The notes beneath the pieces were generated by a model. The model was not told the origin of the DNA. It ran no database searches and was given only the letters and a program-made list of their open reading frames with translations. This document shows, in pieces, positions 42,827 to 64,000 of a stretch of DNA of 64,000 nucleotides. The first letter of the stretch is position 1. Each line of letters begins with the position of its first letter. The translations under genes were made by a program, and so were the position numbers. The stretch covers positions 27,799 to 91,798 of the forward strand of contig JAOZQY010000002.1 of NCBI GenBank assembly GCA_029931975.1, in the 5' to 3' direction. Origin of the DNA: Bacteroidales bacterium. GTDB taxonomy: Bacteria > Bacteroidota > Bacteroidia > Bacteroidales > GCA-2748055.

Positions 42827-42835
42827 TCGGCTTTG

Positions 42836-43762: not shown

Positions 43763-43781
43763 CTTTATCTGATCACTTGCC

Positions 43782-45827: not shown

Positions 45828-45857
45828 GCTTGTGATTAAATTACTAAATTTATCCAC

Positions 45858-46160
45858 ATGAGAGCAATCACAATTAAATCAGTGGAGATCCTCCAAGAGG
45901 AGGTGCAACTTGAAGTCCATTACAAATTTGGAATGGAGCAGTACACTGATTATGTTTTCAAACCGGGAGGGGGCAAAATGTATTCAGCCACCATTGTCAT
46001 GGATTCCAGTGAGCATGTGATAAGCAAAGTAACTGAAGCAAGCAGTTTCTTTCCCGGACACACATTTATTCTCGACGATCTCGATATGGAGTCCAATATA
46101 TCAACATCTTACCGCTTAAAGGAAGGGGAAATCCTGGAGAAGAAATTTAATATTGGCTAA
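45858..46160 (+). CDS. hypothetical protein
   Basis: 100-aa ORF, 30 nt downstream of the kinase gene. It has no recognisable motifs. Confidence 0.4.
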   Translation: MRAITIKSVEILQEEVQLEVHYKFGMEQYTDYVFKPGGGKMYSATIVMDSSEHVISKVTEASSFFPGHTFILDDLDMESNISTSYRLKEGEILEKKFNIG

Positions 46161-46182
46161 GGTCGCCCAACTCTTTAATTTA

Positions 46183-49265: not shown

Positions 49266-49522
49266 TCCGGGTTAAATAAAATATTTCTGGGTGATTCGGG
49301 TTTTATTAATTAAAAATATTAAGATCCAAAATTATAATAATATACGCTTATAATCTACGCGGGTTACATAAATGTTGCATAATGCACTGGAAGGGCTGAT
49401 TTTTCGGACATGTGCAGATGTTTGAAAAACAGTTGGTTAATATAATATTTTCGGAAAGATTAGAATCATTCTGAATAAGTTCCGAAGGGCTTGAAACACC
49501 GTATATTCAGCATGATTAGTGT

Positions 49523-49530
49523 TATTTTTG
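49523..49530 (+). promoter_or_regulatory. Bacteroidota-type -7 promoter box (TAnnTTTG) ahead of the propeller/Fe-S operon
   Basis: TATTTTTG lies in a ~300-nt AT-rich intergenic region, 15-39 nt upstream of the candidate starts 49545/49569. Confidence 0.4.
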
Positions 49531-49568
49531 ACCAGACATGAAGAATGATATACCTAAACGCGAAGAGG

Positions 49569-50774
49569 ATGAAACAAATATTTGGCCTTATACTTATATC
49601 TGTACTGCTTTGCGATGGAACGGCTCAGGACCCTACCAGTTGGAGAGGCCCCACCCGGGATGGAATCTACCCGGAAACAGGCTTGTTGAAGCAGTGGCCG
49701 GCCGGTGGCCCGCAGATGCTCTGGGCCTATGAAGATCTTGGACAGGGACACTCCTCTGCCATTGTCGATCAGGGCTTTGTATATACAACAGGTATGATCA
49801 ATGATATGGGTTATCTTTTTAAATTCGATTTGGAAGGAAAGCTGGTATACAAAAAGGAATATGGTCCTGAATTCACTGAAAGTTTCTATGGTACCAGGGG
49901 AACACCTACCATTGTGGGTGATAAGATTTACCTCTTGAGCGGCACCGGGAAATTGCATTGTATCTATAATGAGTCGGGCGATATACTCTGGACCAAGGAT
50001 CTGTTTAAGGATTTTGATGGCAAGATTATCCGATGGGGAATGAATGAAACTCCTGTGATCGATGGAGATATTATCTACATTACCCCGGGTGGTAAAAAGT
50101 TTAATATTGTTGCACTGAACCGTCATTCGGGCGATCTGATCTGGAGTTCCCCGGGGATGGGAGAACTGACAGCTTATTCGACCCCCCTGTTGTTTGTACA
50201 TAATGGCAGGAAGATGCTGGCTACCCATTTTGAATCGCACCTGGTGGGTTTTGATGCCACCACAGGTGAAATGCTCTGGAACCAGCACCAGCCCAACGAG
50301 TGGTCCGTTCATCCCAATACACCCATCTATCACCAGGGAGGATTATTCTATCTGAGTGGATACGGACAGGGTGGAGGCATGCTGGAAATTGCGCCTGATG
50401 GCAACTCGGTCAACATAAAATGGACCCATAAGCTTATGGATAGTCGTATGGGCGGTGCCGTTCTGGTGGATGGATACATCTATGGATCCGGCGATAGCCG
50501 GGTGTGGACCTGTTTTGACTGGGAAACCGGAGAAGAGATGTACACTTCTAAGGAAATTGGTTTTGGCGTTTTGATTGCTGCGGATGGAATGCTCTACTGT
50601 TACAGTCAAAAGGGCGAGTTGGCCCTGGTAAAGCCTGATCCTTCAGCGTTTACCGTGATCAGCAAAACCAAGGTGGCTCTTGGATCAGAGCAGCACTGGG
50701 CACATCCGGTCATTTATGACGGTGTCCTCTATGTCAGACATGGCAAAGCGCTGATCGCTTATAAAGTAAAGTAG
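49569..50774 (+). CDS. secreted PQQ-like (BamB-like) beta-propeller repeat protein
   Basis: Signal peptide MKQIFGLILISVLLCDGTAQ, the N-terminal motif WRGPTRDGIYPETGLLKQWPAGGPQMLW, and repeated propeller-blade patterns to the end (WAHPVIYDGVLYVRHGKALIAYKV). An alternative start is at 49545. Confidence 0.8.
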   Translation: MKQIFGLILISVLLCDGTAQDPTSWRGPTRDGIYPETGLLKQWPAGGPQMLWAYEDLGQGHSSAIVDQGFVYTTGMINDMGYLFKFDLEGKLVYKKEYGPEFTESFYGTRGTPTIVGDKIYLLSGTGKLHCIYNESGDILWTKDLFKDFDGKIIRWGMNETPVIDGDIIYITPGGKKFNIVALNRHSGDLIWSSPGMGELTAYSTPLLFVHNGRKMLATHFESHLVGFDATTGEMLWNQHQPNEWSVHPNTPIYHQGGLFYLSGYGQGGGMLEIAPDGNSVNIKWTHKLMDSRMGGAVLVDGYIYGSGDSRVWTCFDWETGEEMYTSKEIGFGVLIAADGMLYCYSQKGELALVKPDPSAFTVISKTKVALGSEQHWAHPVIYDGVLYVRHGKALIAYKVK

Positions 50775-50813
50775 CGTCTCCACCCGGCGGTTTGTATTCA
50801 AAAACTTTAATTG

Positions 50814-51439
50814 ATGAAACATAGCTGTTTATCATTGCTTTTTATGATCCTGCTGACAGGAACAGGCCTGCAGGCTCAGGACGGACAATGGCGTGGACCG
50901 CAGAGGGATGGTAAATATCCTGATACAGGATTGCTGAAAAGCTGGCCCGAAGGGGGACCGGAACTTCTTTTGAGAAAAGATGGGCTGGGCAATGGATATT
51001 CTTCGCCCCTGGTTGTGGATGAGAAGATCTATATTATGGGCGGACTGGGAACGGTTGTCTGCATGGATACCGGTTCGGGAGAGATTCTCTGGCAGAGGAA
51101 TACCCACCAGGAATTTGAGGGTGAATTTCATCGCTGGGGCATGACAGAATCCCTGTTACTGACCGATAATGCAGTGATATCCACTCCAATCGATCACAAT
51201 GGATCAAAGTTAATTCTGATCACCTCCAGCGAGAACCTGATGGGTGTGGATCCTGAGTGCGGGGAGGTATACTGGAAGGTAGATCTCCTGAAGTATCTTG
51301 GCGAAAGAGGTCATCGGATCAATACCAATACACCCTGGAAAGCAGGTCGGGACCCTACTGGGCCCATATGACCATTTATAAAAAGAAATTATTTGTGAGG
51401 CATGGGGAAGTTCTTTACATCTTCGAAATAGGGGAATAG
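50814..51439 (+). pseudogene. decayed paralogue of the preceding beta-propeller gene
   Basis: It has the same signal and N-motif (WRGPQRDGKYPDTGLLKSWPEGGPELLL). The body is about half length with blades missing. The conserved C-terminus (WAHMTIYKKKLFVRHGEVLYIFEI) is in a different frame (ORF 51257-51439). Confidence 0.6.
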
Positions 51440-51483
51440 GGAAATAGTTAATAGTTAGTGGCTTGAGATTGAACAGGATAAAT

Positions 51484-52890
51484 ATGGTGACCATATTGCT
51501 GGTACTGGCGGGAGTGATCTCCCTGGGCTGGTGGCTGGCCACGGACCCGGTGAGTGATTTTGTCACTACCCAGCCCGGCCTTGACAATCGTGGTGAAGGC
51601 GGAGTGGTGGCCGATATCGATATCGGGGCCGTTGGAGAGACCCTGGCCAGCCTGGAGACGGAACTTACAGAAACCTGGCCCAGGTTTCGGGGCGAGCATT
51701 TCGATAACATCAGCTCTTCCACGATTCCCCTGATAGATAAGTTTCCTGAAGAGGGACCTGATATAAAGTGGTCGGTGTCCCTGGGTGAAGGACATGCCGG
51801 TGCCGCGATCTACAAGGGAGTGGTTTACGTATTGGATTATGACGAGGAGCAGCGGGCCGATCTCTTAAGGGCTTATGCCCTGGAGAGCGGTGAGAAGCTG
51901 TGGGTGCGTGGCTATAAGATCAACCTGAAGCGGAACCACGGCATGTCGCGCACAGTACCGGCGGTCACCGAAGAGCATATCCTGACCATTGGTCCCCGCA
52001 GTCACGTGATGTGTGTGAATCGTACCGACGGGACCTTTAACTGGGGATTGAATGTGGAGAAGGAGTACGGGTCAGAAATACCACTCTGGTATACCGGTCA
52101 GTGCCCCTTGATTCATGATGGCAAAGCGATTATTGCTGCCTGTGGCACTGCCCTGATGGTGGCCCTGGATATGGAAACCGGAGAGGTGCTCTGGGAAACT
52201 CCCAATCCACATGCCTGGCTCATGTCGCACTCCTCGGTGATGCCCTTTAAGTTTGGGGGAAGGATGATGTATGTGTACAGTGCCTATGGGGGTGTTTGCG
52301 GGGTGGCAGCAGATGGTCCCGATGCAGGAGCAATCCTCTGGGAAAGCACAGCCTGGAACCACCAGGTGATTGCCCCATCGCCGGTCTGTATGCCCGATGG
52401 TAAGATTTACCTTACTGCCGGCTATGGGGCCGGAGCCATGGTGCTACAGTTATCCGCTTCCGGTGGAAGTTACAGTGTTGAGGTACTGAATGAGTATACA
52501 CCTAAAGAGGGACTTGCCTGTGAACAGCAGACGCCGGTGGAGTTTAAGGGACACCTGCTGGGAATTCTTCCCAAGGATGCGGGTCCACTCCGTAACCAGC
52601 TGGTTTGCGTTCATCCCGATAATTTTAACCAGGTAGTGTGGTCTAGCGGACAGGACAAGCGTTTTGGACTGGGGCCCTATATGATTGCCGATAATAAACT
52701 CTTTATTCTTAGTGATGATGCTACACTCACCATTGCCCGGCCGGGTATCAGGGAGTACATTGAACTGGATAGTTACAGGGTGCTGGAGGGACACGATGCA
52801 TGGGGACCTCTGGCCATTGCAGACGGGTACTTGGTGATGCGCGATTCCAAAACAATGGTCTGTCTCGATATAGCTGCAGACCGAAAGTAA
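51484..52890 (+). CDS. membrane-anchored PQQ-like beta-propeller repeat protein
   Basis: N-terminal TM helix (VTILLVLAGVISLGWWLA), then WPRFRGEHFDN... and propeller repeats. The track ORF starts at TTG 51463; the first in-frame ATG is at 51484. Confidence 0.8.
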   Translation: MVTILLVLAGVISLGWWLATDPVSDFVTTQPGLDNRGEGGVVADIDIGAVGETLASLETELTETWPRFRGEHFDNISSSTIPLIDKFPEEGPDIKWSVSLGEGHAGAAIYKGVVYVLDYDEEQRADLLRAYALESGEKLWVRGYKINLKRNHGMSRTVPAVTEEHILTIGPRSHVMCVNRTDGTFNWGLNVEKEYGSEIPLWYTGQCPLIHDGKAIIAACGTALMVALDMETGEVLWETPNPHAWLMSHSSVMPFKFGGRMMYVYSAYGGVCGVAADGPDAGAILWESTAWNHQVIAPSPVCMPDGKIYLTAGYGAGAMVLQLSASGGSYSVEVLNEYTPKEGLACEQQTPVEFKGHLLGILPKDAGPLRNQLVCVHPDNFNQVVWSSGQDKRFGLGPYMIADNKLFILSDDATLTIARPGIREYIELDSYRVLEGHDAWGPLAIADGYLVMRDSKTMVCLDIAADRK

Positions 52891-52909
52891 GAACGGAAAA
52901 AAACAGCAT

Positions 52910-53884
52910 ATGAAAAAGCGAAGTTTGACAATCGTGGTGCTGGTGATCATAGTGATTATCCTGGGAGTTATTATTGTGGATTTTTTGGGTAACCGTCCCG
53001 ATCGCAGGGGGGAGAATCCCTATGTGTTGGAGGTGAAGCAATACAGGGAAGTGGACCCTGAACTGATATCCCACAGAGAGATCCGGAATTTTTCTCTGGG
53101 ATTGATGATTGCAAGCGATATGAGTTATTACAATCAGACTCTCTATATTTCGGGGAATTCAACACTGGCAGTAATCTCCCTGAATGGATCACAATCCACC
53201 CTGCACGAGATTCCACCCGGCGCCACCAGCCTGGAGGTGGATGATGAAAATATTTTTGTGGGTTTTGGCAGCCATGTGGCCAAATATAATCATGAAGGAG
53301 AGCTTTTGCAGCAGTGGGCTGATCTGGGGGAGCGTACCGTGATTACCAACCTGGCCATAAAAGGAGATAAGATTTTCGTAGCAGATGCAGGTAACAGGCG
53401 CATTGTGATCTTCAACAGGGAAGGTGAATTGTTGGGCCAGTTTGAAGGGAAGGTCGAATCGGATGATGCACATGGATTTATTGTACCCAGTGCTAATTTC
53501 GATCTGGCAGTAAACTGTTTTGGCGAGTTATGGGTGGTCAATCCGGGCAAACATGCCCTGGAAAACTATAGCGACGATGGCCGTTTGCGTGGTTTCTGGG
53601 AGAGACGTTCCTTCGAAATAGACGGTTTCCTGGGCTGTTGCAACCCGGCCAGGATCACCACCATGGCCGATGGATCCTTTGTAACGTGTGAGAAGGGGAT
53701 GGTACGGATCAAGATTTACGATCAGTCGGGAAAACTTAAGAGCGTGGTGGCTCCTCCCGATCTTTTCAATGGAGAAGAAGGGAAGGCTCTGGAAGTATGC
53801 GCCGATGAGAACGATGTGATCTATGCATTGGATTTTGAGAAAGATATGATCAGGGTTTTTGAACCCATAGCAAAGGAACAATGA
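52910..53884 (+). CDS. membrane-anchored NHL-repeat beta-propeller protein
   Basis: N-terminal TM helix (LTIVVLVIIVIILGVIIV) and NHL repeats (e.g. FVADAGNRRIVIFNREGELLGQF; VRIKIYDQSGKL). An unusual CCNP motif is present (GFLGCCNPARI). Confidence 0.8.
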   Translation: MKKRSLTIVVLVIIVIILGVIIVDFLGNRPDRRGENPYVLEVKQYREVDPELISHREIRNFSLGLMIASDMSYYNQTLYISGNSTLAVISLNGSQSTLHEIPPGATSLEVDDENIFVGFGSHVAKYNHEGELLQQWADLGERTVITNLAIKGDKIFVADAGNRRIVIFNREGELLGQFEGKVESDDAHGFIVPSANFDLAVNCFGELWVVNPGKHALENYSDDGRLRGFWERRSFEIDGFLGCCNPARITTMADGSFVTCEKGMVRIKIYDQSGKLKSVVAPPDLFNGEEGKALEVCADENDVIYALDFEKDMIRVFEPIAKEQ

Positions 53885-54078
53885 ACAGGCGGAATTTTAT
53901 AGATAAAACAGGCCGGGGATTTCTTCTCGGGGCGATCGCACTGCTTAGCGGGGTGCTGGTAGTACGTCGGCAAGTGGTTCAGGATGCTTCCTGTACAGCT
54001 AACTTCCAGTGTAAGAACTGCGGGAAACTGTCTGATTGTCAGCTTTCTGAGGCTGAAACAGAACGAACAGATGGATAA
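53881..54078 (+). CDS. 65-aa Tat-motif / hydrophobic-anchor microprotein with a Cx5Cx2Cx5C cluster
   Basis: MNRRNFIDKTGRGFLLGAIALLSGVLVV...SCTANFQCKNCGKLSDC. The start overlaps the NHL gene stop (ATGA) and the end overlaps the next start by 8 nt, which supports translation. Confidence 0.5.
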   Translation: MNRRNFIDKTGRGFLLGAIALLSGVLVVRRQVVQDASCTANFQCKNCGKLSDCQLSEAETERTDG

Positions 54079-54661
54079 ACAGAATAAGAGCAAGGATAAG
54101 GGTGTCAAAAGAAGAGACTTCATCAATACGGGTGTAAGACTTGCCCTTGGTGTGTCTGTGGTGGGGACCGCTGCTTTCACCCTGAAGCGCTCATCCACGG
54201 GAAAGGATTATGTCTGGCAGATCGATCCATTCAAATGTACACAGTGCGGACGTTGTGCTACCGAGTGTGTTAAGGCAGAATCGGCAGTAAAATGTGTACA
54301 TGCCTATGCCCTGTGTGGTTACTGCGATCTTTGCGGTGGCTATTTCAAGCCGGGGGCCAAGCTGGAGACCGGTGCGGAGAATCAGCTCTGTCCGACCGGT
54401 GCTATCCAGCGAAAATTTATTGAGGAACCCTATTTTGAATATGTCATCGACGAGGCGCTCTGTATTGGTTGTGCTAAATGCGTAAAGGGATGTTCAGCCT
54501 TTGGAAACGGTTCCCTGCACCTTCAGATCAGGCATGATCTCTGTCTTAACTGCAACCAGTGCTCCATCGCCTCGGTTTGTCCCTCCGATGCCATCAGTCG
54601 TGTTCCGGCCGATGAACCCTATAAAATTAAAGGTGATTTCATCATTGAGAAGGAAGTTTGA
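54071..54661 (+). CDS. Tat-exported poly-[4Fe-4S] ferredoxin (NapG/NosG/MauM-like)
   Basis: Tat motif KRRDFINTGVRLALGVSVVG. Four Cys-cluster motifs are present: CTQCGRCATEC, CGYCDLCGG...LCPTGAI, CIGCAKCVKGC and CLNCNQCSIASVCP. Confidence 0.8.
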   Translation: MDKQNKSKDKGVKRRDFINTGVRLALGVSVVGTAAFTLKRSSTGKDYVWQIDPFKCTQCGRCATECVKAESAVKCVHAYALCGYCDLCGGYFKPGAKLETGAENQLCPTGAIQRKFIEEPYFEYVIDEALCIGCAKCVKGCSAFGNGSLHLQIRHDLCLNCNQCSIASVCPSDAISRVPADEPYKIKGDFIIEKEV

Positions 54662-54662
54662 T

Positions 54663-55952
54663 ATGATAAAATGGATACCCCGCATTGTACTGATTCTAAT
54701 CCTGTTGACATTGCTTACCGGTAGTTTCCTGCATGCACAGCAACGTTTCCCTAAGCCTGAGTTTGATACCGGTTATGTGCAGCCCGATCCCAGCACGCCC
54801 GAACCCAGAGCCATGGCCATGGAGTATTTTGATGTGTTGGTTCTGCTGGTAGTGCTTTCCCTGGCGTCCTGGCTGGCCATTAAAAAGCGTTCGCGCCGTG
54901 GTCTGCTCTGGCTCTCTGTTTTCTCGCTGATCTATTTTGGGTTCTATCGCGATGGCTGCATCTGCTCCGTCGGAGCCATTCAGAATGTGGCACTCTCCAT
55001 TTTCGATCCGGGATATGCCATCTCCATAACAGCCCTGCTCTTTTTTGTCCTTCCGCTACTCTTTGCACTCTTTTTCGGGCGCGTCTTTTGTGCTTCGGCA
55101 TGTCCCCTTGGAGCCATCCAGGATCTGCTGGTGATTCACCCCATCTCCATACCCAGCTGGATTCGAAAAACCCTGGGTTTTATTCCGCTTATTTACCTTG
55201 CGCTTTCGGTACTCTTTGCTGCCACGGGCAGTGACTTTATCATCTGTCGCTACGATCCCTTTATAGGGATCTTCCGGATGGACGGTCCCTTCCTGATGAT
55301 TTTCCTGGGTATGACCTTTCTCTTCCTGGGCATGTTTTATGCCAGGCCCTACTGCCGGATCTTCTGTCCCTACGGTGTTCTGCTGGGATGGATGTCAAAA
55401 TTTTCGAAATGGCACATGAGCATCACCCCCTCGGAGTGCATCAAGTGCAAACTGTGCGAGGACTCCTGTCCATTCGACGCCATTGAGGTGCCCATTGAAC
55501 AGAGTTACAGGGACCCGGAGGTCTCCCGAAAGAACCTGAGGAGATTTATTTTCTATATCGCTATGATTCCCCTGCTTACGCTGGCAGGTGGATGGACAGG
55601 GGCAAAATCGAATGTTTTTTTGAGCCGTGTTCATCCCGATGTCTACCTGGCCGAGCTGATGATCAGTAATCCCGAGTTAAGAGAAGATGAGGAGAACCTG
55701 GATATTCAGGCCTTCCTGGAAGCGGGGCTTACCTTTGAGCAGTTGATTGAGAAGGCCGCTGTGATACGCGAGAAATTCAGGAAAGGGGGCATGGCTATGG
55801 GTGGATTCATCGGTCTGGCACTGGGTATCACCCTGATGAACCAAGTGGTGTTCCGGCGCAGGGAAGATTACAAGCCCCATAAGGGAGATTGTTTCTCCTG
55901 TGGAAGGTGTATGGACTATTGTCCTGTGGGAAAAATAGTGAATAGTGCCTAG
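54663..55952 (+). CDS. integral-membrane polyferredoxin (NapH/NosH/MauN-like)
   Basis: Multiple TM helices, two CX3CP motifs (FCASACPLGAIQD; YCRIFCPYGVLL), and two ferredoxin motifs (CIKCKLCEDSCP; CFSCGRCMDYCP). The start is 1 nt after the preceding stop. Confidence 0.8.
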   Translation: MIKWIPRIVLILILLTLLTGSFLHAQQRFPKPEFDTGYVQPDPSTPEPRAMAMEYFDVLVLLVVLSLASWLAIKKRSRRGLLWLSVFSLIYFGFYRDGCICSVGAIQNVALSIFDPGYAISITALLFFVLPLLFALFFGRVFCASACPLGAIQDLLVIHPISIPSWIRKTLGFIPLIYLALSVLFAATGSDFIICRYDPFIGIFRMDGPFLMIFLGMTFLFLGMFYARPYCRIFCPYGVLLGWMSKFSKWHMSITPSECIKCKLCEDSCPFDAIEVPIEQSYRDPEVSRKNLRRFIFYIAMIPLLTLAGGWTGAKSNVFLSRVHPDVYLAELMISNPELREDEENLDIQAFLEAGLTFEQLIEKAAVIREKFRKGGMAMGGFIGLALGITLMNQVVFRRREDYKPHKGDCFSCGRCMDYCPVGKIVNSA

Positions 55953-57825
55953 GGTAAAAGTTGATGGAAAAGAAATGAAAATAACAGGTAATATGGATCA
56001 GGATCAGAAAATTGTACTGACCCGCAGGGTTGTACTGATCTCCGGAACATTCAGCGCAGTGGTGGCCCTGCTGCTGATACTGAATTTCTGGCACATGAAA
56101 CACAATGAGCCGCTGGAGAGTAAAACCATCGAGGCACTGGTGGAACGACTGGCCAGCGAGCCGGACAATGAGGAGCTAAAAGAGGAAATCCGCAGCTTTG
56201 ACCTGCTGGCACGCAAGGCCTATTTTACGAGCCAATGGCAGGTGAAGAGCGGTACCTGGCTACTGCTTATTGGTGGTATCGTGCTGGCTGTTTCCCTGAA
56301 AATCTATACCGATTTAAGGAGCCGGATTGAGGAACCCGAAAAGGTGACTGAAGACTTGCTGAGGGCAAGGGCCAATTCACAGTACTGGTTGATGATGGCA
56401 GGAGGATTGATCCTCGGATTGTCACTGGTGGCGGGTTTCCTGACCAACGATTACCTGGAGGCTTACCAGGAGATGGGTGTGGCGACTGAGTCCGAACAGC
56501 AGGAGGGTGATGTGGAAATGATCGAATTGTTCACCGGGCAACCGGATACAACAGGTGATGCAGGTCTTGAGGTGAGTGAAACGAAAAACAGTGAAGTTGT
56601 CAGTGAGACAGGTACAGGCCAAGCTCCTGTCGAAGAGTCGCTTGCTACTGCGACAGAGATTCGTTTTAATCGCGAAGATTTTAAAAAGAACCAGGCTACC
56701 TTCCGTGGTTACATGGGACAGGGTGTTTCCTATCATAAGAATATCCCGGAGAATTGGAACGGTTCCACCGGCGAGGGCATCAAATGGAAAGTAGCTTCTT
56801 CCAGGCCGGGATACAGCTCACCGGTGATCTGGGGAGATAAGCTTTTTATCTCGGGCGGAGATACGCAGGCCAGGGTGGTGGCATGCTACAACAGGCATAA
56901 CGGACAACTACTCTGGGAGAAGGAGGTATCCGGGATACAGGGATCTCCGGCAGCGCCGCCCCGGGTCACCGACGATACGGGACTGGCGGCTCCAACCATG
57001 TCGGTTGATGGTAACAGGGTATATGCCATATTTGCCACTGGCGACGTGGTGGCCTTTGATATGAATGGCAAACAGGTGTGGGGTCGCAATCTTGGAGTTC
57101 CCAATAACCATTATGGGCACTCATCATCGCTCCAGGTCTGGGACAACAAGGTGATTGTTCAGTACGATACCAATTCGTCGGGAAGAATGCTGGCCCTTAA
57201 TACATCAACGGGTGAGACCATCTGGGATGTGGAGCGACCGGTGCACATTTCATGGGCATCTCCGGTTCTGATCGATGTGGAAGGAAAGATCCAGGTGGTT
57301 ACCACGGCAGATCCCTATGTATCGGGACATGATCTGGAAACTGGTGCTGAAATCTGGAAGGTGGAGGCCATGATGGGTGAAGTTGGTGCCTCTGTTGCCT
57401 ATGGGAACGGACTGGTATTTGCCACCAACGAGTATGCCCGGCTGGTAGCTATGGAGCCTAAAGCGGGTGCGGAGTTTACCTGGGAGGACGATGAGTACCT
57501 TGCCGAGGCATCCAGTCCGGTTGCATACAATGGCCTGCTCTATACAGCCACCAGTTACGGGGTGCTGGTCTGTTACGATGCTCTTACAGGAGAGAAGAAA
57601 TTTGAAAAAGAATTTAACAATGGCTTCTATTCTTCACCCATGATAGCAGATGGAAAGCTCTATATCGTCGATATGCGCGGTGTGACTCATATCCTGAAGG
57701 CCGATGCCAGCGGAACCATTATTGCCGAGCCGGAGATGGGTGAAGGGGGGTATGCCGTACCTGCTTTTGCAGATGGATTAATTTACCTGAGGGGGGAATC
57801 GAACTTGTATTGTATTGGGAAATAG
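55945..57825 (+). CDS. three-TM-anchored PQQ-like beta-propeller repeat protein with acidic linker
   Basis: About three N-terminal TM helices and an acidic Glu/Thr-rich linker. Then FRGYMGQGVSYHKNIPENW...IKWKV and propeller repeats to the end. The GTG start at 55945 overlaps the upstream gene by 8 nt; an alternative ATG is at 55975. Confidence 0.8.
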   Translation: MPRVKVDGKEMKITGNMDQDQKIVLTRRVVLISGTFSAVVALLLILNFWHMKHNEPLESKTIEALVERLASEPDNEELKEEIRSFDLLARKAYFTSQWQVKSGTWLLLIGGIVLAVSLKIYTDLRSRIEEPEKVTEDLLRARANSQYWLMMAGGLILGLSLVAGFLTNDYLEAYQEMGVATESEQQEGDVEMIELFTGQPDTTGDAGLEVSETKNSEVVSETGTGQAPVEESLATATEIRFNREDFKKNQATFRGYMGQGVSYHKNIPENWNGSTGEGIKWKVASSRPGYSSPVIWGDKLFISGGDTQARVVACYNRHNGQLLWEKEVSGIQGSPAAPPRVTDDTGLAAPTMSVDGNRVYAIFATGDVVAFDMNGKQVWGRNLGVPNNHYGHSSSLQVWDNKVIVQYDTNSSGRMLALNTSTGETIWDVERPVHISWASPVLIDVEGKIQVVTTADPYVSGHDLETGAEIWKVEAMMGEVGASVAYGNGLVFATNEYARLVAMEPKAGAEFTWEDDEYLAEASSPVAYNGLLYTATSYGVLVCYDALTGEKKFEKEFNNGFYSSPMIADGKLYIVDMRGVTHILKADASGTIIAEPEMGEGGYAVPAFADGLIYLRGESNLYCIGK

Positions 57826-60167
57826 TGGAAGTTGAGATAAAAGATATAAATGCGATAGTGCAGGAGCTGGGAGTAGCACAGCATGCTGTGATTCCAGTAC
57901 TGCAGGCCATCCAGGAGAAGTACAACTATCTGCCTGAGGAGGCGTTGCGCAGGGTATGTGAGATTTCCGAAATCACACCGGCTCAGATTGTGGGTGTGGC
58001 CAGCTTCTACTCGCAATTCAGGTTTACACCGGCCGGTCAGCATATAATAAAGGTGTGTGTGGGAACCGCCTGTCATGTTAAAGGAGCCGGACTGGTATAT
58101 GACGCCATGAAACGGGAACTGGAACTGGGTGAGGGTAAGGATACCACTGCTTCGGGGAAGTATACCATTGAGAAGGTTAACTGCCTGGGATGTTGCACCC
58201 TGGCACCGGTGGTTCAGATCGACCATGTTACCTACGGACATGTAAACACCTCCCAGGTGGCCAAAGTTCTGACCGATTTTGAGACTCTGAAGGGCGACTC
58301 GGGAAAGAAAAAATACAGATTGGCTGATGGCAGTGAGGTGAAAGGTGAGATACGGATCGGACTGGGCTCCTGTTGTGTGGCAAGTGGAAGTGATGAGATC
58401 AGGGATGCGGTAAAGGATACCATCGACCGGAAGGGACTAAATGTAAAACTGAAGCATGTGGGCTGTGTGGGCATGTGTCATCAGGTTCCACTGGTGGAGA
58501 TTGTTCCGGCCAACGGGGAGTCCACCCTTTATTCAAAGGTAAAGGCGGCCGATGTGGATCAGATCGTACAAGAGCACTTTCAACCCGAAGGGTTCCTGAA
58601 AAGAATCTCCCATAAACTGCTGAATATGGCCGATACTATCAGGGACGATAGTCGCTGGATGGGAGTGGACCGCTATTCTCTGGATGTGCGGGAGAAACAT
58701 GTATCCCTCTTCCTGGATAAGCAGATTCCCATGGCCACCGAGTTTCGTGGAATCATCAATCCCATCGATGTGGAGGAGTATAAGAGTCGGAATGGATTTA
58801 AAGGACTCTCCCGGGTACTGAAAGAGATGAAACCTGCCGAGGTGGTCGGGGAGATTATCGATAGTGGCATACGTGGCCGCGGTGGTGGTGGCTTTCCTTC
58901 CGGAATCAAATGGAAGATGGTGGCCCGGCAGCCTGGTCCCACAAAATACGTAATCTGTAATGGCGATGAGGGCGACCCGGGTGCCTTTATGGACCGGATG
59001 CTTCTTGAGTCTTACCCCTACCGGATTATTGAAGGGATGGTTGCAGCAGGCTATGCCATTGGTGCCTCTGAAGGCATCCTGTATATCAGGGCAGAATATC
59101 CCCTGGCGGTGACACGTGTATTGCAGGCACTGGATATCTGCAGGGAGCAGGGTTATCTTGGAAAAAATATTATGGGTAGCGGTTTTGACTTCGATCTAAG
59201 TGTTTACCAGGGTGCAGGAGCCTTTGTCTGTGGGGAGGAGACCGCATTGATGGAATCCATTGAGGGGAAACGTGGTTTCCCCAGGATCAGGCCACCCTAT
59301 CCTGCAGTGAAAGGCCTGTGGGGAGCTCCCACACTGATAAACAATACAGAGACCTTTGCCCAGATTTCCTATATAATGAAGAACGGTGCCTCCGCCTTTA
59401 ACAGGGTAGGAACCAAGTTGTCGCGGGGAACCAAGGTTTTTGCACTGGCCGGAAAGGTGGCCCGTGGCGGACTCATCGAGGTGCCCATGGGAATGACCAT
59501 TCGCGAGGTGGTGGAAGAGATCGGAGGCGGTGTGGCCAATGGCCGGAAATTTAAAGCGGTACAGATCGGCGGACCTTCCGGAGGTTGTGTGCCGTCGTGG
59601 AAGTCAGATACACCTATTGATTTTGAATCGCTTAAGGAGGTTGGAGCCATGATGGGCAGCGGGGGACTGGTGGTGCTGGATGATACGGACTGCATGGTGG
59701 ATATTGCCCGCTACTTTCTCACCTTCACCCAGAACGAATCCTGTGGCAAATGCAGCTTCGGACGCATTGGCACCAAGCGGATGCTGGAGATCCTGGAAAA
59801 GCTTACCACCGGGAAAGGGACCGAAAAAGATCTGGAGAACCTGGAGGAGCTGGCGCATTGGACCAAGAAGGGAAGCCTGTGTGCCTTATGCGGAACGGCA
59901 CCCAATCCCATTCTCTCCACCCTGGAATATTTCAGGGACGAGTATGAGGCCCATATCAGGGGGGAGTGTCCGGCCGGAAAGTGCAAGCACCTGATCAAGT
60001 ATGAAATTACGGATGATTGTATCGGCTGCACCCTTTGCGCTCAGGACTGCCCGGTGGATGCTATCGCCTTCAAACCTCATGAGAAGCATGAGGTGGACAA
60101 TGAATTGTGTATTCAATGTGATGGTTGCAGGCAGGTATGTCCCGAAAATGCGGTAATAGTTAGATAG
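57825..60167 (+). CDS. fused NuoE-like [2Fe-2S] / second thioredoxin-like [2Fe-2S] / NuoF-like FMN-NADH flavoprotein / 2x[4Fe-4S] ferredoxin (HydB/HndC-type)
   Basis: NuoE Cys pattern (CVGTAC...CLGCC) and a second 2Fe-2S domain (GSCCVASG...GCVGMCHQ). NuoF motifs are GIRGRGGGGFPSGIKW, CNGDEGDPGAFMDR, GAGAFVCGEETAL and ESCGKC. The C-terminus carries CIGCTLCAQDCP and CIQCDGCRQVCP. GTG 57825 overlaps the upstream TAG; the track gives TTG 57810. Confidence 0.9.
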   Translation: MEVEIKDINAIVQELGVAQHAVIPVLQAIQEKYNYLPEEALRRVCEISEITPAQIVGVASFYSQFRFTPAGQHIIKVCVGTACHVKGAGLVYDAMKRELELGEGKDTTASGKYTIEKVNCLGCCTLAPVVQIDHVTYGHVNTSQVAKVLTDFETLKGDSGKKKYRLADGSEVKGEIRIGLGSCCVASGSDEIRDAVKDTIDRKGLNVKLKHVGCVGMCHQVPLVEIVPANGESTLYSKVKAADVDQIVQEHFQPEGFLKRISHKLLNMADTIRDDSRWMGVDRYSLDVREKHVSLFLDKQIPMATEFRGIINPIDVEEYKSRNGFKGLSRVLKEMKPAEVVGEIIDSGIRGRGGGGFPSGIKWKMVARQPGPTKYVICNGDEGDPGAFMDRMLLESYPYRIIEGMVAAGYAIGASEGILYIRAEYPLAVTRVLQALDICREQGYLGKNIMGSGFDFDLSVYQGAGAFVCGEETALMESIEGKRGFPRIRPPYPAVKGLWGAPTLINNTETFAQISYIMKNGASAFNRVGTKLSRGTKVFALAGKVARGGLIEVPMGMTIREVVEEIGGGVANGRKFKAVQIGGPSGGCVPSWKSDTPIDFESLKEVGAMMGSGGLVVLDDTDCMVDIARYFLTFTQNESCGKCSFGRIGTKRMLEILEKLTTGKGTEKDLENLEELAHWTKKGSLCALCGTAPNPILSTLEYFRDEYEAHIRGECPAGKCKHLIKYEITDDCIGCTLCAQDCPVDAIAFKPHEKHEVDNELCIQCDGCRQVCPENAVIVR

Positions 60168-60174
60168 GGAAATA

Positions 60175-61740
60175 GTGGTTAAAATAAAGATCGATAACAG
60201 GGAAATAGTGGCAGCCGAAGGCAGCGTGCTGATGGAGGTGATCAGGGACATGGGCATCGAGGTGCCTTCCATGTGTTACCTGAAGGAAGTCGAAAGTTTC
60301 ACCTCCTGCATGCTATGTGTAGTGAAGGATCGAAAGAGCGGGAAAATCCTGCCTTCCTGTTCGCTTGAGGCAGTGGAGGGCATGGATATTATCTCCATGG
60401 ACGACGAGGTGAGGGAGGCACGAAAAAGTGCCCTTGAACTGCTGCTGAGCGAACATGTGGGCGATTGCGAGGCCCCCTGCCAGCTTACCTGTCCGGCCCA
60501 TATGGATATTCCCCTGATGAACCGTCTGCTGGCTGAAGGAAAGTTCCATGAGGCTCTGGTGGTGGTGAAAAAAGATATTGCTCTTCCATCGGTTCTTGGC
60601 AGAATTTGTCCGGCCCCCTGCGAGGGAGCCTGTCGGCGAAAGTCCATCGATCAGGCGGTCTCCATCTGTCTGCTAAAACGCTTTGCAGGGGATCATGACC
60701 TGGAGGCTGATATGTCATGGATGCCCATTCCGGCAAGCAGTAGTGGAAAGAAGGTAAGTGTGATTGGTGCTGGACCGGCCGGACTGGCTGCAGCGTACCA
60801 GCTGGAACTGATGGGGCATCACTGCCTTGTCATCGACCGTAATAAAATTGCGGGTGGCAGCCTTAGAAAAGAGGTCTCCCCGGAGGAACTTCCTCCGGTG
60901 GTTCTAAAGCGGGAAATTGAGCATATTGCAGCACTTGGTGTGGAATTCAGGCTTGGATCGGAGGTGGATGCCAAACAGTTCCTGGAACTTCAGAAGAGCA
61001 GCGATGCCATTGTGGTGGCCACAGGAAAAGGAGAAAGCGGAGTTGGAGCCTGGGGATTGCCCATGCATCCCAAGGGTGTGGAAGTCCATGGGAAGACATA
61101 CCGGGTGGGCGACACAGCCGTTTTTGTGGTGGGTAGCGCCCTGAAACCGTCCAAACTGGCCATCCGGGCATTGGGACAGGGCAAGGAAGCTGCATTCAGT
61201 GTGGATCAGTTTCTGAAAGGGCAAGCGGTTACAGGGGAACCCAGGCTTTTTAATTCCCGGTTTGGCAAACTGGATCGGGCCGAGTATGCTGAATATCTAA
61301 AAGAATCGAAGGAAGGGGAACGCCTGGAACCGGCACAAAAAGGTGAGGGCCTGACTGCGGAACAGGTAATGGAGGAGGCTGCACGATGCCTGCATTGCGA
61401 TTGCCGCGATTTGAAAAACTGCAGGCTCAGGCTCTATTCAGATGCCTATGGTGCCGATCAGAAGCGATTCAAATCTGAAGTTCGTCAGCTCTGCACCAAA
61501 CAGGTGCAACACAAGGAGGTGATTTACGAGCCTTCCAAGTGTATCAAGTGCGGGATCTGTGTCAGGCTCACCGAAAAATATAAAGAGGATTTTGGTTTCA
61601 CCTTTATTGGCAGGGGCTTTGATGTGGTAGTTGGAGTGCCTTTTAATGAGAGCACGGCCGAGGGTCTTAAGAAAGTGGCCCTGGAGGTAGCCGATGCATG
61701 TCCCACCGGTGCCATCAGTCGAAAAATTGAAAGCTTGTAA
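60175..61740 (+). CDS. NuoG/HydA-type [2Fe-2S] domain fused to a GltD-like Fe-S/FAD domain and C-terminal NuoG-like [4Fe-4S] motifs
   Basis: The N-terminus KIKIDNREIVAAEGSVLMEV...PSMCY...CMLCVV is Fer2-like. A GltD N-domain follows (CEAPCQLTCPAHMDIP...GRICPAPCEGACRR), then an FAD GxGxxG (VIGAGPAGLAAAYQL). The C-terminus carries CLHCDCRDLKNC and CIKCGICV...CPTGAI. It uses a GTG start. Confidence 0.8.
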   Translation: MVKIKIDNREIVAAEGSVLMEVIRDMGIEVPSMCYLKEVESFTSCMLCVVKDRKSGKILPSCSLEAVEGMDIISMDDEVREARKSALELLLSEHVGDCEAPCQLTCPAHMDIPLMNRLLAEGKFHEALVVVKKDIALPSVLGRICPAPCEGACRRKSIDQAVSICLLKRFAGDHDLEADMSWMPIPASSSGKKVSVIGAGPAGLAAAYQLELMGHHCLVIDRNKIAGGSLRKEVSPEELPPVVLKREIEHIAALGVEFRLGSEVDAKQFLELQKSSDAIVVATGKGESGVGAWGLPMHPKGVEVHGKTYRVGDTAVFVVGSALKPSKLAIRALGQGKEAAFSVDQFLKGQAVTGEPRLFNSRFGKLDRAEYAEYLKESKEGERLEPAQKGEGLTAEQVMEEAARCLHCDCRDLKNCRLRLYSDAYGADQKRFKSEVRQLCTKQVQHKEVIYEPSKCIKCGICVRLTEKYKEDFGFTFIGRGFDVVVGVPFNESTAEGLKKVALEVADACPTGAISRKIESL

Positions 61741-61742
61741 CT

Positions 61743-62876
61743 ATGTCCATAAAAAAAACATTCATCCGGCTTGTACTGGCCTCTGTGATTATTCCAGGAG
61801 CGTGGACCAGTACCCGGGCCCAGTCAGGCAGCTGCTGGGGAAACTTCAGGGGCGATGCGAAACTAAGCGGGGTGAGCCAGTCGAAGCTTCCCTCAAAGCC
61901 TACTATGTTATGGAATTTCAATGCCCAGGATGGAATCAAGGCCTCACCGGTAGTGTGTGACGGAGTGCTTGTGGTGGGCACCCTGGAAGGAATCCTCTAT
62001 GGAATTAATACCGATGGAACCCTGAAGTGGAAGATCGATACCGAATACAGCATTGAGGCCCCGGCCATGATTGTGGACGGGGTGGTCTATGTGGGGAACC
62101 TGGATGGTACGCTCTATGCCGTCGATCTGCAAAGCGGTGCCGTCCGATGGACCTACCAGACCGAGAATATGATTATGGGATCACCTTCCTTTTATAGGAA
62201 AGGAACGCAAAAAGTGATCCTGGTGGGCAGCTATGACTATTACCTGCACGGGATTGATCCGGCTACAGGGAAGGGGCTTTGGAAGTACGAGACCGATAAC
62301 TTCATTAATGGTTCCTGTGCGCTCTATAGCGGAATGGCAGTTTTCGGAGGATGCGACGGCTTTATCCATATGGTGGATGTGTTGACGGGGAAGGTTAAAA
62401 GCAGTATGTCAATTTCCACCTATGTGGCCAGTTCGGCCTGTATAGACCGCGACTATGCCTATGTCGGGGATTACGATGGACGGTTCCTGGCTGTGGACCT
62501 TTTGGGTGAAAAGGTAAAATGGGTATTTGAGAACAAGGAGGCCAACCTGCCCTTTATCGGATCGCCGGCCATTTACGGGGATCATGTATTTATCGGAAAC
62601 CGTGATAAATTCGTTTATTGTCTGAACAAAAAGGATGGAAAGCTGGTCTGGAAGTATAACACCGGCGGGAGGGTCGATGCCTCGCCTGTAGTTGTGGGAA
62701 ACAGCTTACTGGTTGCCAGTATGCGGGGCGACCTGTTTCTCCTGAACCGGAAGAACGGGAAGCTGTTGTGGACCTATGAACTGGGGACCGCTGTTTATGC
62801 CAATGGGGCCGTTTTGGATAACAGGATTTATATAGCAGGCGATGACGGCCGGGTTTATTGTTTTGGAAAGAAGTAG
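61743..62876 (+). CDS. secreted PQQ-like (BamB-like) beta-propeller repeat protein
   Basis: Signal peptide (LVLASVIIPGAWTSTRAQ), WGNFRGDAKLSG, and very regular blade repeats (GxLYAVDxxxGxxxWxY). The start is 2 nt after the preceding stop. Confidence 0.85.
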   Translation: MSIKKTFIRLVLASVIIPGAWTSTRAQSGSCWGNFRGDAKLSGVSQSKLPSKPTMLWNFNAQDGIKASPVVCDGVLVVGTLEGILYGINTDGTLKWKIDTEYSIEAPAMIVDGVVYVGNLDGTLYAVDLQSGAVRWTYQTENMIMGSPSFYRKGTQKVILVGSYDYYLHGIDPATGKGLWKYETDNFINGSCALYSGMAVFGGCDGFIHMVDVLTGKVKSSMSISTYVASSACIDRDYAYVGDYDGRFLAVDLLGEKVKWVFENKEANLPFIGSPAIYGDHVFIGNRDKFVYCLNKKDGKLVWKYNTGGRVDASPVVVGNSLLVASMRGDLFLLNRKNGKLLWTYELGTAVYANGAVLDNRIYIAGDDGRVYCFGKK

Positions 62877-62897
62877 AAAGGATATGGAATGAATATA

Positions 62898-64000
62898 ATG
62901 CACATCATCCCCGGTTCCGGGGGGAGTTTTTATTGCGGGAACTGTCTGCGCGACTCCAAATACGTTGAGGCACTACGAAAATCTGATCATAAGGTGGTGA
63001 AGCTGCCCATGTACCTGCCTCTGTTTGCCGATGAGCACGATCTGAGCAGGGAGGTTCCGGTCTTTTACGGGGCCATCAGTATTTACCTGAAGCAGCTCTT
63101 TCCCATCTTCAGAAAAGCCCCGGGATGGGTCGACCGTGCCCTTAACTCCAGGCCCATGCTGAAACTGGCTTCCAAATTTGCGGGTTCTACCCGTGCCAGG
63201 GGACTGGAAGAAATGACCGTTTCTATGTTGCTGGGAGAAGAGGGGCAGCAGCAGGATGAACTGCAGAAGATGGTCGACTGGATCGTGGAGAATTGTGCTC
63301 CCGATGTGATCCACCTATCCAATGCCCTCTTGCTTGGACTGGCTCAGCAACTGGGTGAACGCATGCATGTTCCCGTGATCTGTTCATTGCAGGACGAAGA
63401 TGTGTGGGTCGATGTAATGAAGCCTTCAGCAGCAGAGAGTGTATGGAAACTGATGTCCAACAAGGCAGACCATGTGGCAAAATTTATTTCTGTGAGCGAT
63501 TTCTATGCCGGGGTGATGAAGAAGAAAATGTCACTGCCGGCAGAGAAGGTGGACTCCGTACATGTCGGGGTGGACCCGGCCGACTATAACTTCAAAGCGG
63601 TATCGGAGAAGAAGCGAAACATAGGCTTTGTATCCCGCATGTGTTTTGAAAACGGCCTGGATATCCTGGTGGATGCCTTTTTCCTTTTGAAGCAGAAGGA
63701 GGAATATGCTGATGTGAACCTGGTACTCACTGGAGGATCCACCGGCGATGATAAAAAATATCTGTCTGATATACGGGCTCAGATCAGGGAACATGGCTTA
63801 CAGGATCAGGTAGAGTTTCATGACGATTTTGAGGAGCAGGGGCTCAGGGACTATTTCGAAAAGGTAGCTGTGGTATCAGTGCCGGTCCGCAATGGAGAGG
63901 CATTTGGCATTTACCTGCTGGAGTGCATGGCCTCGGGAATTCCCGTGGTACAGCCTGCTCTGGGTGCGTTCCCCGAGATTATTGAATTCGCCGGAGGAGG
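62898..64000 (+). CDS. glycosyltransferase family 4 (GT-B), 3' end outside window
   Basis: This ORF is not in the track because it has no stop in the window. I translated it by eye: MHIIPGSGGSFYCGNCLRD...VHVGVDPADY...GFVSRMCFENGLDILVDAF...EAFGIYLLECMASGIPVV, which has the GT4 EX7E-type region. It begins 21 nt after the last propeller gene. Confidence 0.8.
   Translation, partial: MHIIPGSGGSFYCGNCLRDSKYVEALRKSDHKVVKLPMYLPLFADEHDLSREVPVFYGAISIYLKQLFPIFRKAPGWVDRALNSRPMLKLASKFAGSTRARGLEEMTVSMLLGEEGQQQDELQKMVDWIVENCAPDVIHLSNALLLGLAQQLGERMHVPVICSLQDEDVWVDVMKPSAAESVWKLMSNKADHVAKFISVSDFYAGVMKKKMSLPAEKVDSVHVGVDPADYNFKAVSEKKRNIGFVSRMCFENGLDILVDAFFLLKQKEEYADVNLVLTGGSTGDDKKYLSDIRAQIREHGLQDQVEFHDDFEEQGLRDYFEKVAVVSVPVRNGEAFGIYLLECMASGIPVVQPALGAFPEIIEFAGG

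Follow-up and report, generated by a model that had tools for sequence, protein, structure and literature searches.

Gene content of the cluster

The window analyzed in this work is a stretch of 64,000 nucleotides (nt) from a Bacteroidales bacterium (contig JAOZQY010000002.1, positions 27,799 to 91,798), and our subject is a gene cluster on its plus strand. An earlier note, made from the sequence alone, had read this cluster as one unit that joins a NuoEF-type flavoprotein module to exported beta-propeller proteins through a NapH-like membrane protein and a ferredoxin exported by twin-arginine translocation (Tat). That the cluster is one conserved functional unit is now supported by synteny across phyla, by permutations of gene order with constant membership, and by natural gene fusions. 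Eleven consecutive open reading frames (ORFs), here named G1 to G11 in gene order, span 49545-62876 where the note had placed them, and their order and domain content were confirmed by the ORF list and by Pfam and NCBIfam searches. The genes, together with a glycosyltransferase gene that follows them, are:

49545-50774, plus strand: G1, secreted PQQ_2/BamB-like beta-propeller (PQQ_2 E=2e-19, signal peptide; 401 amino acids (aa) from M9)
50811-51371, plus strand: G2, truncated remnant of a second G1-type propeller, 186 aa (homology to full-length orthologue)
51463-52890, plus strand: G3, N-terminally transmembrane (TM)-anchored 8-bladed PQQ-like propeller (probable start at 51484)
52910-53884, plus strand: G4, TM-anchored NHL-repeat propeller (NHL repeats)
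53881-54078, plus strand: G5, 65-aa protein with a Tat-type signal/anchor (MNRRNF...) and a C-x5-C-x2-C-x5-C knuckle (sequence motif)
54071-54661, plus strand: G6, ferredoxin exported by Tat; four Cys groups (16 Cys) and one spare invariant Cys (Pfam, alignment)
54663-55952, plus strand: G7, polytopic Fe-S membrane protein of the NapH/NosR superfamily (two Fer4_5 (CX3CP) and two 4Fe-4S motifs)
55945-57825, plus strand: G8, 3-TM anchor, acidic linker, and 8-bladed PQQ_2 propeller (PQQ_2 E=1e-28; alternative ATG at 55993)
57825-60167, plus strand: G9, cytoplasmic BfuC(NuoE)-BfuB(NuoF) fusion (Pfam; longest ORF from TTG at 57810)
60175-61740, plus strand: G10, truncated BfuA (NfnA/StnC-like), 521 aa (Fer2_4, Fer4_20, Fer4_Nqo3, FAD Rossmann fold, terminal Fer4)
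61743-62876, plus strand: G11, secreted BamB-like propeller (TIGR03300, 136 bits vs. a cut-off of 285)
62889-64000, plus strand: GT4 glycosyltransferase, cut by the window end (domain search, related loci)

By Pfam and NCBIfam the PQQ_2/BamB-like propellers are G1, G2, G3, G8, and G11, and the NHL repeats are in G4. The gap between G2 and G3 is 91 nt. From G4 on the junctions are as tight as had been claimed (ATGA, an 8-nt overlap, 1 nt, an 8-nt overlap, TAGTG, 7 nt, and 2 nt), and the 8-nt G7/G8 overlap holds only with the GTG start of G8. All propellers and G6 carry a signal or an anchor and G9 and G10 carry none, as judged from a hydrophobicity scan and the N-terminal sequences; this supports the predicted bipartite topology of exported propellers and G6 vs. 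cytoplasmic G9 and G10. A multiheme or molybdopterin partner was considered and rejected: no CxxCH motif was found in any G1-G11 product and Pfam detected no such domains, so that the earlier statement on the lack of heme c and of a molybdopterin or hydrogenase partner was borne out by the motif and domain searches.

Conservation, arrangements, and gene fusions

One genome per species (GTDB) was scanned with a G7 alignment; a relative was found in at least 577 genomes and the best 80 loci were analyzed. A metagenome scan with a fusion alignment gave at least 591 relatives, and 80 loci with a GC content of 0.35-0.74 were analyzed. In the tblastn matrix a gene was scored when it lay on the same strand and on the expected side of G7, out of the loci long enough. 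The best 80 species loci are all from Bacteroidia except for one bin labelled Chlorobiota, and the cultured carriers among them are Draconibacterium orientale DSM 25947 (locus L039), D. sediminis, and Maribellus mangrovi. G6 (63/63) and G8 (58/58) were never missing from these loci, and the scores for the other genes were 61/62 for G3, 63/65 for G4, 58/66 for G5, 51/52 for G9, 45/46 for G10, and 41/46 for G11; G1 is present in 56 of 59 loci, in 55 of them on the expected side. Each gene is kept in the same strand and order in 88-100% of the sufficiently long species loci, and this conservation is far above chance. The metagenome counts rest on 20 loci of at least 20 kb: G4, G6, G7, and G8 occur in all 20, G3 in 18, G9 in 17, G10 in 16, an ABC ATPase gene in 16, a G1-type gene in 14, and the GT4 and G11-type genes in 13 each.

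The gene order of the window (arrangement A) is G1, G3, G4, G5, G6, G7, G8, G9, G10, G11, GT4, ATPase, permease. Arrangement B runs G11, GT4, ATPase, permease, G3, G4, G5, G6, G7, G8, G9, G10, G1, and the two are permutations of the same 13 families. A third arrangement (C; L114, L116, L118, and L119) resembles A without G9-G10. These four loci have a GC content of 0.41-0.44 and retain G1, G3, G4, G6, G7, G8, G11, GT4, and the ABC transporter. When the arrangements were compared we observed three sub-modules: an invariant G3-G4-(G5)-G6-G7-G8 block, a usual G9-G10 pair that, where present, always directly follows G8, and a frequent G11-GT4-ABC block.

Among 1.84 billion cluster representatives that were searched, 3343 clusters proved to be related to G7, and for 408 the E-value was below 1e-30. 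Several of the related proteins, about 1000 aa long, are G7::G8 fusions (P0126, P0144, P0154, P0278, and others) from Planctomycetota and other lineages. We also found a G5::G6::G7 fusion (P0306, locus L088), G5::G6 fusions (L087 and L091), and a NapH-like::NuoE fusion (P0320, locus L085). In Planctomycetota (L084, L086, and L090) the locus consists of G3, an NHL protein, a ferredoxin, G7::G8 or G6::G7, a NuoEF fusion, and a truncated GltD-like gene, and in the high-GC loci L087 and L091 a tight operon carries the ABC ATPase, an FtsX permease, G3, an NHL protein, G5::G6, and G7::G8, with no NuoEF nearby.

Propeller, NapGH-like, and NuoEF/GltD-like genes thus co-occur widely in both the species and the metagenome loci, and the possibility that the modules are unlinked in other genomes was not borne out, since the linkage is kept across phyla. 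The earlier grouping of six exported propellers as one set stands in part. G3, G4, and G8 are universal; the G1 and G11 types do not occur in the Planctomycetota or high-GC variants, and neither does G2, which in the window is a remnant. No G1-type gene was found in the Planctomycetota loci, and G1/G11 types do recur elsewhere beyond Bacteroidia.

The cytoplasmic Bfu module

The Bfu family was defined in PMC9304861, where the predicted membrane-bound Bfu enzymes are of the Mbh and Nuo types alone. Pfam assigned 2Fe-2S_thioredx (two stretches), Complex1_51K, SLBB, NADH_4Fe-4S, and Fer4_21 to G9. Next to NuoE the protein has a 2Fe-2S/thioredoxin-like domain on the N-terminal side, an FMN/NADH site with a 4Fe-4S cluster, and, at the C-terminus, a 2x[4Fe-4S] domain. 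NuoE/HoxE models cover residues 1-160, which are NuoE/HydC-like, and residues 175-783 span the full length of NfnB (9n5u_B, E=2e-207), StnB (8oh5_B), and HydB. On this end-to-end alignment and the NuoE part, G9 contains the BfuB domains and a NuoE-type BfuC in a BfuC-BfuB fusion, and the architecture of the bifurcating core, as set out for the Bfu family (PMC9304861, PMC11829005), is complete in it.

The best matches of G10 are 9bov_A, NfnA (9n5u_A), and StnC (8oh5_C), with E-values for the G9 and G10 matches from 1e-78 to 2e-207. G10 has the NuoG-like N-terminal 2Fe-2S/4Fe-4S domain of a BfuA, and retains the GltD-type Fe-S clusters, the FAD Rossmann fold, and C-terminal Cys4 and 4Fe-4S motifs. 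Its residues 1-289 align with residues 3-291 of 9bov_A and residues 276-514 with 426-671, so that about 135 aa of the chain (291-426) are skipped. The missing region is the NADPH-binding Rossmann subdomain, and the NADP(H) site of the transhydrogenases is therefore absent. The formate dehydrogenase (FDH)-like domain is lacking as well: G10 is 521 aa long vs. 963-1178 aa, and the alignment stops near chain residue 671-702. In the multiple alignment every propeller-linked copy (L001, L084, L086, and L088; Bacteroidia, other Bacteroidota, and Planctomycetota) has the NADPH subdomain deleted, and only the propeller-less L085 protein carries the insert. An exact-sequence look-up of G10 gave no record.

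The L085 locus (Phycisphaerae, 2625-8176) encodes the NapH-like::NuoE fusion, a NuoF-ferredoxin protein, and a full-length GltD-like protein (643 aa) with the NADPH domain, and it has neither a Tat ferredoxin nor propellers. This variant is a possible Nfn/Stn-type enzyme tethered to the membrane, and may represent the module in its ancestral form.

The closest characterized systems are NfnABC of Caldicellulosiruptor (PMC11829005) and StnABC of Sporomusa (PMC10482914). Like them, the cluster holds full BfuC and BfuB in G9 and, in G10, the BfuA N-terminal Fe-S domain, the GltD/NfnL-type Fe-S pair, and the FAD Rossmann fold. Unlike them, its BfuC and BfuB are fused, its BfuA is devoid of the NADPH subdomain (about 135 aa) and the FDH-like domain, and its genes go together with the gene of a NapH-like membrane protein, to which the module is fused in one variant. 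The earlier statement that no NfnB or similar partner is present fails by homology, since G10 is related to NfnA/StnC and G9 to NfnB, and it stands functionally, since the NADP(H) site has been lost.

One reading of these results is that G9-G10 is a self-contained transhydrogenase of the Nfn/Stn type that happens to lie beside unrelated envelope genes, and its best PDB matches are indeed the Nfn-Bfu and Stn enzymes. The subdomain that defines a transhydrogenase, however, is missing from G10 and its loss is conserved; the pair directly follows G8 in at least three arrangements across phyla; a NapH-like::NuoE fusion exists; and the junctions are 1-nt overlaps or gaps of no more than 7 nt. We regard such a coincidence as extremely improbable, and because the propeller-linked BfuA has lost its NADPH-binding domain we rejected the transhydrogenase reading of G9-G10. 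The loss of the NADPH and FDH domains and the coupling to the NapH-like protein suggest instead that the third substrate of this Bfu module is a transmembrane Fe-S chain rather than NADP(H).

The proposed membrane conduit

G7 has the make-up of a NapH/NosR/RdhC membrane module, which has two CX3CP motifs joined in NapH and NosR by two cytoplasmic 4Fe-4S motifs (PMC5928378). Its CX3CP motifs FCASACP and YCRIFCP and its 4Fe-4S motifs CIKCKLCEDSCP and CFSCGRCMDYCP are all invariant, and the positive-inside rule places them on the cytoplasmic side. A predicted cleaved signal is followed by an invariant periplasmic peptide, QQRFPKPEF, and three additional invariant Cys (in GCIC and ICRYDPF) lie in predicted periplasmic loops. 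To our knowledge, canonical NapH has neither the cleaved signal and periplasmic N-peptide nor these three further Cys, and we know of no canonical NapH with the two added TM helices that split the Fe-S motifs in G7. The Tat RR of G6 is invariant, as are 17 Cys, which would suffice for four clusters with one Cys to spare. The extra cysteines raise the possibility of an interfacial cluster between G7 and G6. In G5 conservation is limited to the four Cys and the signal, in which the Tat motif is RR or RK; an uncalled orthologue lies in L086 at 8167. The G5::G6 and G5::G6::G7 fusions indicate that G5 is a detachable N-terminal module of the predicted periplasmic ferredoxin G6.

The labels NapG-like and NapH-like given in the earlier note stand for the architecture, and both proteins fall below the family thresholds. 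G7 scores 38.4 bits against NapH/MauN (TIGR02163, cut-off 213.05) and 34.9 bits against the NapH equivalog NF007013 (cut-off 234), and the NapG/MauM models of NCBIfam do not match G6 at E<=0.01. A true NapGH identity of the pair was rejected on these scores; G6, with its Tat RR motif and four Cys groups, is taken as NapG-like by architecture only. Searches of the G3, G4, G6, and G7 sequences against PDB gave generic propeller, NHL, or ferredoxin matches, and no solved NapH-like membrane module.

The cluster shares with NapGH, NosGH, and MauMN (also NosR and RdhC) a polytopic protein with two CX3CP and two 4Fe-4S motifs and a ferredoxin with four clusters that is exported by Tat. NapH is known to bind NapF on the cytoplasmic side and NapG on the periplasmic side, and it is regarded as a menaquinol dehydrogenase (PMC5928378). 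Unlike in these systems, the donor that we propose is a Bfu flavoenzyme and not, or not only, quinol, and neither a nitrate reductase, a nitrous oxide reductase, nor a methylamine dehydrogenase was found in the cluster. A second group of relatives comprises the predicted membrane-bound Mbh-Bfu and Nuo-Bfu complexes and WOR-Bfu, a 'plug on a polyferredoxin wire' (PMC9304861; PMC12318220). The shared idea is a BfuBC core attached to a membrane complex or a four-cluster ferredoxin chain; in PDB 9mqx the polyferredoxin subunit (chain E) is a weak match to G6 (E=7e-5), and further chains of this entry are matched by G9 and G10. Those systems use ion-pumping modules of the complex-I/Mbh type or a cytoplasmic tungsten enzyme, whereas here a NapH-type conduit would lead to periplasmic propellers.

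The quinol dehydrogenase activity ascribed to NapH suggests another use of G7, namely as the quinone-reactive anchor of a membrane-bound NAD(P)H:quinone oxidoreductase in which the Bfu module reduces quinone and G6 and the propellers take electrons from quinol, in the manner of NapG. Such an enzyme would fit L085, with its NuoE-fused NapH-like protein, NuoF, and full-length GltD-like protein and no periplasmic partners, and also the core-only variants, which have no Bfu module and need another donor, quinol being the obvious one. On the other side stand the low score of G7 against the NapH family, its family-specific Cys in periplasmic loops, the lack of a quinone site identifiable from sequence, and the conserved loss of the NADPH domain, which this explanation does not account for. 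We consider it very unlikely, and prefer to see G7 as part of an Fe-S conduit from the Bfu module to the periplasm.

The propeller proteins

The natural G7::G8 fusions indicate that G8 is a physical partner of G7. G3 is the most conserved periplasmic component and the candidate catalytic or cofactor-binding subunit: 146 of its 475 positions are at least 95% conserved among 66 Bacteroidia sequences, and 77 positions are invariant across phyla, including the motifs HGMSRT, WYxGQCPL, TPNPxxWxMxHxS, GYxAG, and QxTP. The invariants include the polar residues H159, R163, T164, Y210, Q213, C214, N248, H256, S258, Q355, T357, R460, and D461, which fits the expectation for an active site. In G4 a vicinal Cys-Cys pair (GCCNP; C243 and C244) is invariant across phyla. 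No conserved metal-site His cluster was found in G3 or G8.

An AlphaFold2 (AF2) model of G3 (pLDDT 85) is an 8-bladed PQQ-like propeller. In Foldseek it matches BamB, tetrathionate hydrolase (TetH), and PQQ alcohol dehydrogenase with E-values of 1e-13 to 1e-17, TM-scores of about 0.5-0.57, and 12-18% identity, and because the three score about equally the fold fails to discriminate between a scaffold and an enzyme. BamB, TetH (6L8A), and the PQQ alcohol dehydrogenases have the same fold as the G3 model. TetH is an example of a PQQ-like propeller that acts as a cofactor-free periplasmic enzyme, and in quinoproteins PQQ/Ca ligands and a vicinal disulfide are expected in the propeller. The single-sequence AF2 model of G4 reached a pLDDT of only 52.6 and was not used for a fold search.

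Family models gave scores well under their cut-offs. The best propeller scores against BamB (TIGR03300) are 28-136 bits vs. a cut-off of 285, and those against PQQ-enzyme models (including TIGR03075) are 18-78 bits vs. 480; G3 reaches 28-46 bits with the family hidden Markov models, whose cut-offs are 285-650. A true BamB identity was rejected on these scores. Sulfur chemistry of the tetrathionate hydrolase kind was also considered, and nothing beyond the common fold supports it.

G2 was described earlier as a decayed paralogue of G1, and it is indeed truncated (186 vs. about 420 aa). It covers residues 30-267 of a 422-aa orthologue in L004 with 50% identity; full-length orthologues are about 415-422 aa. 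Since L089, an independent Logan assembly, carries the same short G2 (185 aa), the truncation is a real lineage deletion and not an assembly error. G1 follows G10 in arrangement B, and G11 adjoins the GT4-ABC block in arrangements A, B, and C. In L086 (Planctomycetota) the G4-type protein (8380-9402) opens with DRREFLNAAG..., a Tat-like motif in place of a simple TM anchor, which hints at export in a folded or cofactor-loaded form.

The glycosyltransferase and ABC transporter extension

In nearly all related loci the GT4 gene is followed by a LolD-like ABC ATPase gene and by a gene for a duplicated FtsX permease of about 1035-1100 aa. The ATPase scores 222-229 bits against LolD (TIGR02211, equivalog cut-off 308) and is thus a member of the family and not LolD itself. 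The permease contains the Pfam domains FtsX and MacB_PCD. A LolD/MacB/FtsE-type ATPase with an FtsX-domain permease that has a periplasmic domain is the make-up of type VII (MacB/LolCDE/FtsEX) transporters, to which the pair belongs. The Bacteroidia permease is collinear with that of L087 and L091 (31% identity over the first 312 aa). The N-terminal GT4 motif GGSFYCGNCLRD includes a CxxC pair. We count GT4 and the ABC transporter as members because their co-occurrence with the core persists in permuted gene blocks; judged from these loci, they belong to the system and the operon continues beyond 62876. The earlier note was right on the single operon and wrong on its end: it overlooked these partners because the window ends there.

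The frequent company of an ABC transporter brings to mind known clusters. Partners of the NapH/NosR family include the propeller enzymes NosZ and MauB (the heavy chain of methylamine dehydrogenase), and nos clusters carry an ABC system. By analogy with NosR/NosGH for NosZ or MauMN for methylamine dehydrogenase, the cluster might encode a biosynthetic or maintenance machine. The electrons would then go into the assembly, activation, or repair of a propeller enzyme in the periplasm, or into the chemical modification of a glycoconjugate of the envelope that GT4 makes and the ABC transporter handles. In keeping with this, GT4, the LolD-like ATPase, and the FtsX permease accompany the core even where the lineages are distant and the gene order is permuted, and the electron-input module varies while the periplasmic and ABC parts are constant. 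The Planctomycetota loci, however, have the core and the Bfu module with no GT4 or ABC transporter nearby, a high-capacity NADH/ferredoxin module with about 15 Fe-S clusters looks excessive for occasional repair, and G3 and G8 show no conserved His cluster for a metal site. We hold this explanation to be unlikely, and continue with a reductase at the end of the conduit.

Proposed mechanism

We propose that the cluster encodes a multi-subunit redox machine of the cell envelope, in which a Bfu input feeds the G7/G6/G5 conduit and the G8/G3/G4 propellers form a periplasmic reductase end; this reading, built on domain content and gene linkage, is given a probability of about 0.55. G9 and G10 would oxidize NADH at the NuoF-type FMN, and ferredoxin would probably be co-oxidized at the C-terminal 2x[4Fe-4S] domain of G9. 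The electrons would exit via G10, in which the NADP(H) site is deleted, to the cytoplasmic 4Fe-4S/CX3CP face of G7, and cross the membrane through G7 to G6, the polyferredoxin exported by Tat, and its Cys4 module G5. G6 would hand low-potential electrons to the membrane-anchored propellers G8 (presumably bound to G7), G3, and G4, and the reduction site for a periplasmic or envelope substrate may be housed in G3 with its invariant polar residues and/or in G4 with its vicinal Cys-Cys. As conserved accessories, GT4, the type-VII ABC transporter, and two soluble propellers (G1 and G11) would probably supply, extract, or modify the substrate. Of this scheme, the domains, the co-occurrence of the genes, the physical links made by natural fusions, and the loss of the NADPH domain are shown by the data, and the direction of flow, the part played by ferredoxin, the choice of the catalytic propeller, and the roles of GT4 and the ABC transporter are inferred.

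Several points weigh against this mechanism. The Bfu module is absent in L087, L091, L094, L114, L116, L118, and L119, and with such variants NADH can only be the usual and not the obligatory donor. The FAD 'GD' motif is not conserved in G10, which makes flavin retention there uncertain. Comparison of G3, G4, and G8 with PDB sequences and a fold search with G3 alone found no characterized enzyme; the earlier concern that the propellers might match a known enzyme family was thereby removed, and the catalytic cofactor or substrate cannot be named from sequence or fold. NapH-type proteins are classically quinol dehydrogenases, and the path may therefore include a quinone step. Finally, electron export from cytoplasm to periplasm runs down the membrane potential, and on energetic grounds the opposite direction is attractive.

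In that opposite direction the same wiring would run in reverse: the periplasmic end would oxidize a low-potential donor, and the electrons would enter by way of G6 and G7 and reach the Bfu core, where they would be bifurcated to NAD+ and ferredoxin in an uptake that generates proton-motive force. Characterized Bfu enzymes do take electrons from a mid-potential third-substrate donor and bifurcate them to NAD and ferredoxin (PMC9304861, PMC11829005), G9 retains the complete BfuBC core including the C-terminal clusters of the ferredoxin side, and inward flow would be expected to build membrane potential. Periplasmic donors below the NADH potential are few, however, the domain searches showed neither a hydrogenase nor a formate dehydrogenase nor any further low-potential oxidase of a known type, and variants without the Bfu module exist. 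Reversed flow is in our view fairly improbable, and outward flow from NADH to a periplasmic reductase is the direction that we favor.

A fuller version of the proposal is put forward as tentative and rather doubtful. It holds that the cluster encodes a new envelope redox complex: the first flavin-based bifurcating enzyme of the Bfu type with its third substrate outside the cytoplasm, an all-Fe-S, heme-free, possibly quinone-independent conduit, a propeller reductase with a new active site (the G3 polar pocket or the G4 vicinal dithiol), and a dedicated ABC transporter and glycosyltransferase, together forming a major and so far unrecognized sink for electrons of NADH/ferredoxin in anaerobes of sediments or digesters, among them Bacteroidota and Planctomycetota. 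No published description of the cluster was found in the searchable literature on the component names or taxa, and the cluster is real, widely conserved (Bacteroidia, Planctomycetota, and other lineages), and apparently undescribed. Its components belong to known superfamilies, the Bfu enzymes and the NapGH/NosR-type conduits, and the terminal chemistry may be categorically new.

In anoxic sediments, soils, and digesters the breakdown of polymers is dominated by fermentative Bacteroidota and Planctomycetota, whose disposal of NADH and reduced ferredoxin shapes the flow of carbon and hydrogen. If the mechanism is true, electrons would leave the cytoplasm by a new heme-free route, the Bfu family would gain a new kind of third substrate, and new periplasmic enzyme chemistry on PQQ-like or NHL propellers would probably be involved. 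Cultured carriers (D. orientale, D. sediminis, and M. mangrovi) make direct testing feasible.

Gene starts, promoter region, and neighboring genes

Gene calls of 401 aa for G1 (L089) and 468 aa for G3 in a second assembly indicate that the true starts are probably M9 at 49569 and M8 at 51484, respectively. The true start of G9 is probably the GTG at 57825, because it yields the TAGTG overlap and fits the N-termini of orthologues. The region upstream of G1 is:

49266-49544, no strand: AT-rich divergent intergenic region with Bacteroidetes-type -7 boxes (TAnnTTTG) at 49523-49530 (plus) and 49327-49334 (minus)

The motif TAnnTTTG occurs 50 times in the window vs. 39 expected by chance, and the -7 boxes upstream of G1 are therefore suggestive by position only. 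A sigma-70 and terminator scan of the window gave a background level, which is uninformative for a Bacteroidetes operon.

Upstream of the cluster, 36000-49265 is a glycan-utilization neighborhood. It contains a LacZ-type glycoside hydrolase family 2 (GH2) gene (38300-41419), genes for a Gfo/Idh/MocA-type dehydrogenase and a DMT-family transporter, a sensor histidine kinase gene (43782-45827), and a second GH2 gene on the minus strand (46183-48603). The minus-strand neighbors (a GH2 beta-galactosidase and a 221-aa protein without assignment) are kept beside the cluster solely in close relatives.

In L002 (13097-18474) and L003 (13393-18480) the NuoEF, GltD-like, and G11 genes are broken into many short ORFs, which could reflect frameshift-type assembly errors or decay of the distal operon. 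No further recurrent neighbor family was found in the analyzed loci except a Cys-rich membrane protein of about 221 aa in six loci. It follows the G1-type gene in L127 (18862-19524) and in five other arrangement-B loci, and carries the motifs CPYCKYW...CPCGYG and HGCKGCPQKDLCPW; it may be a clade-specific accessory component.

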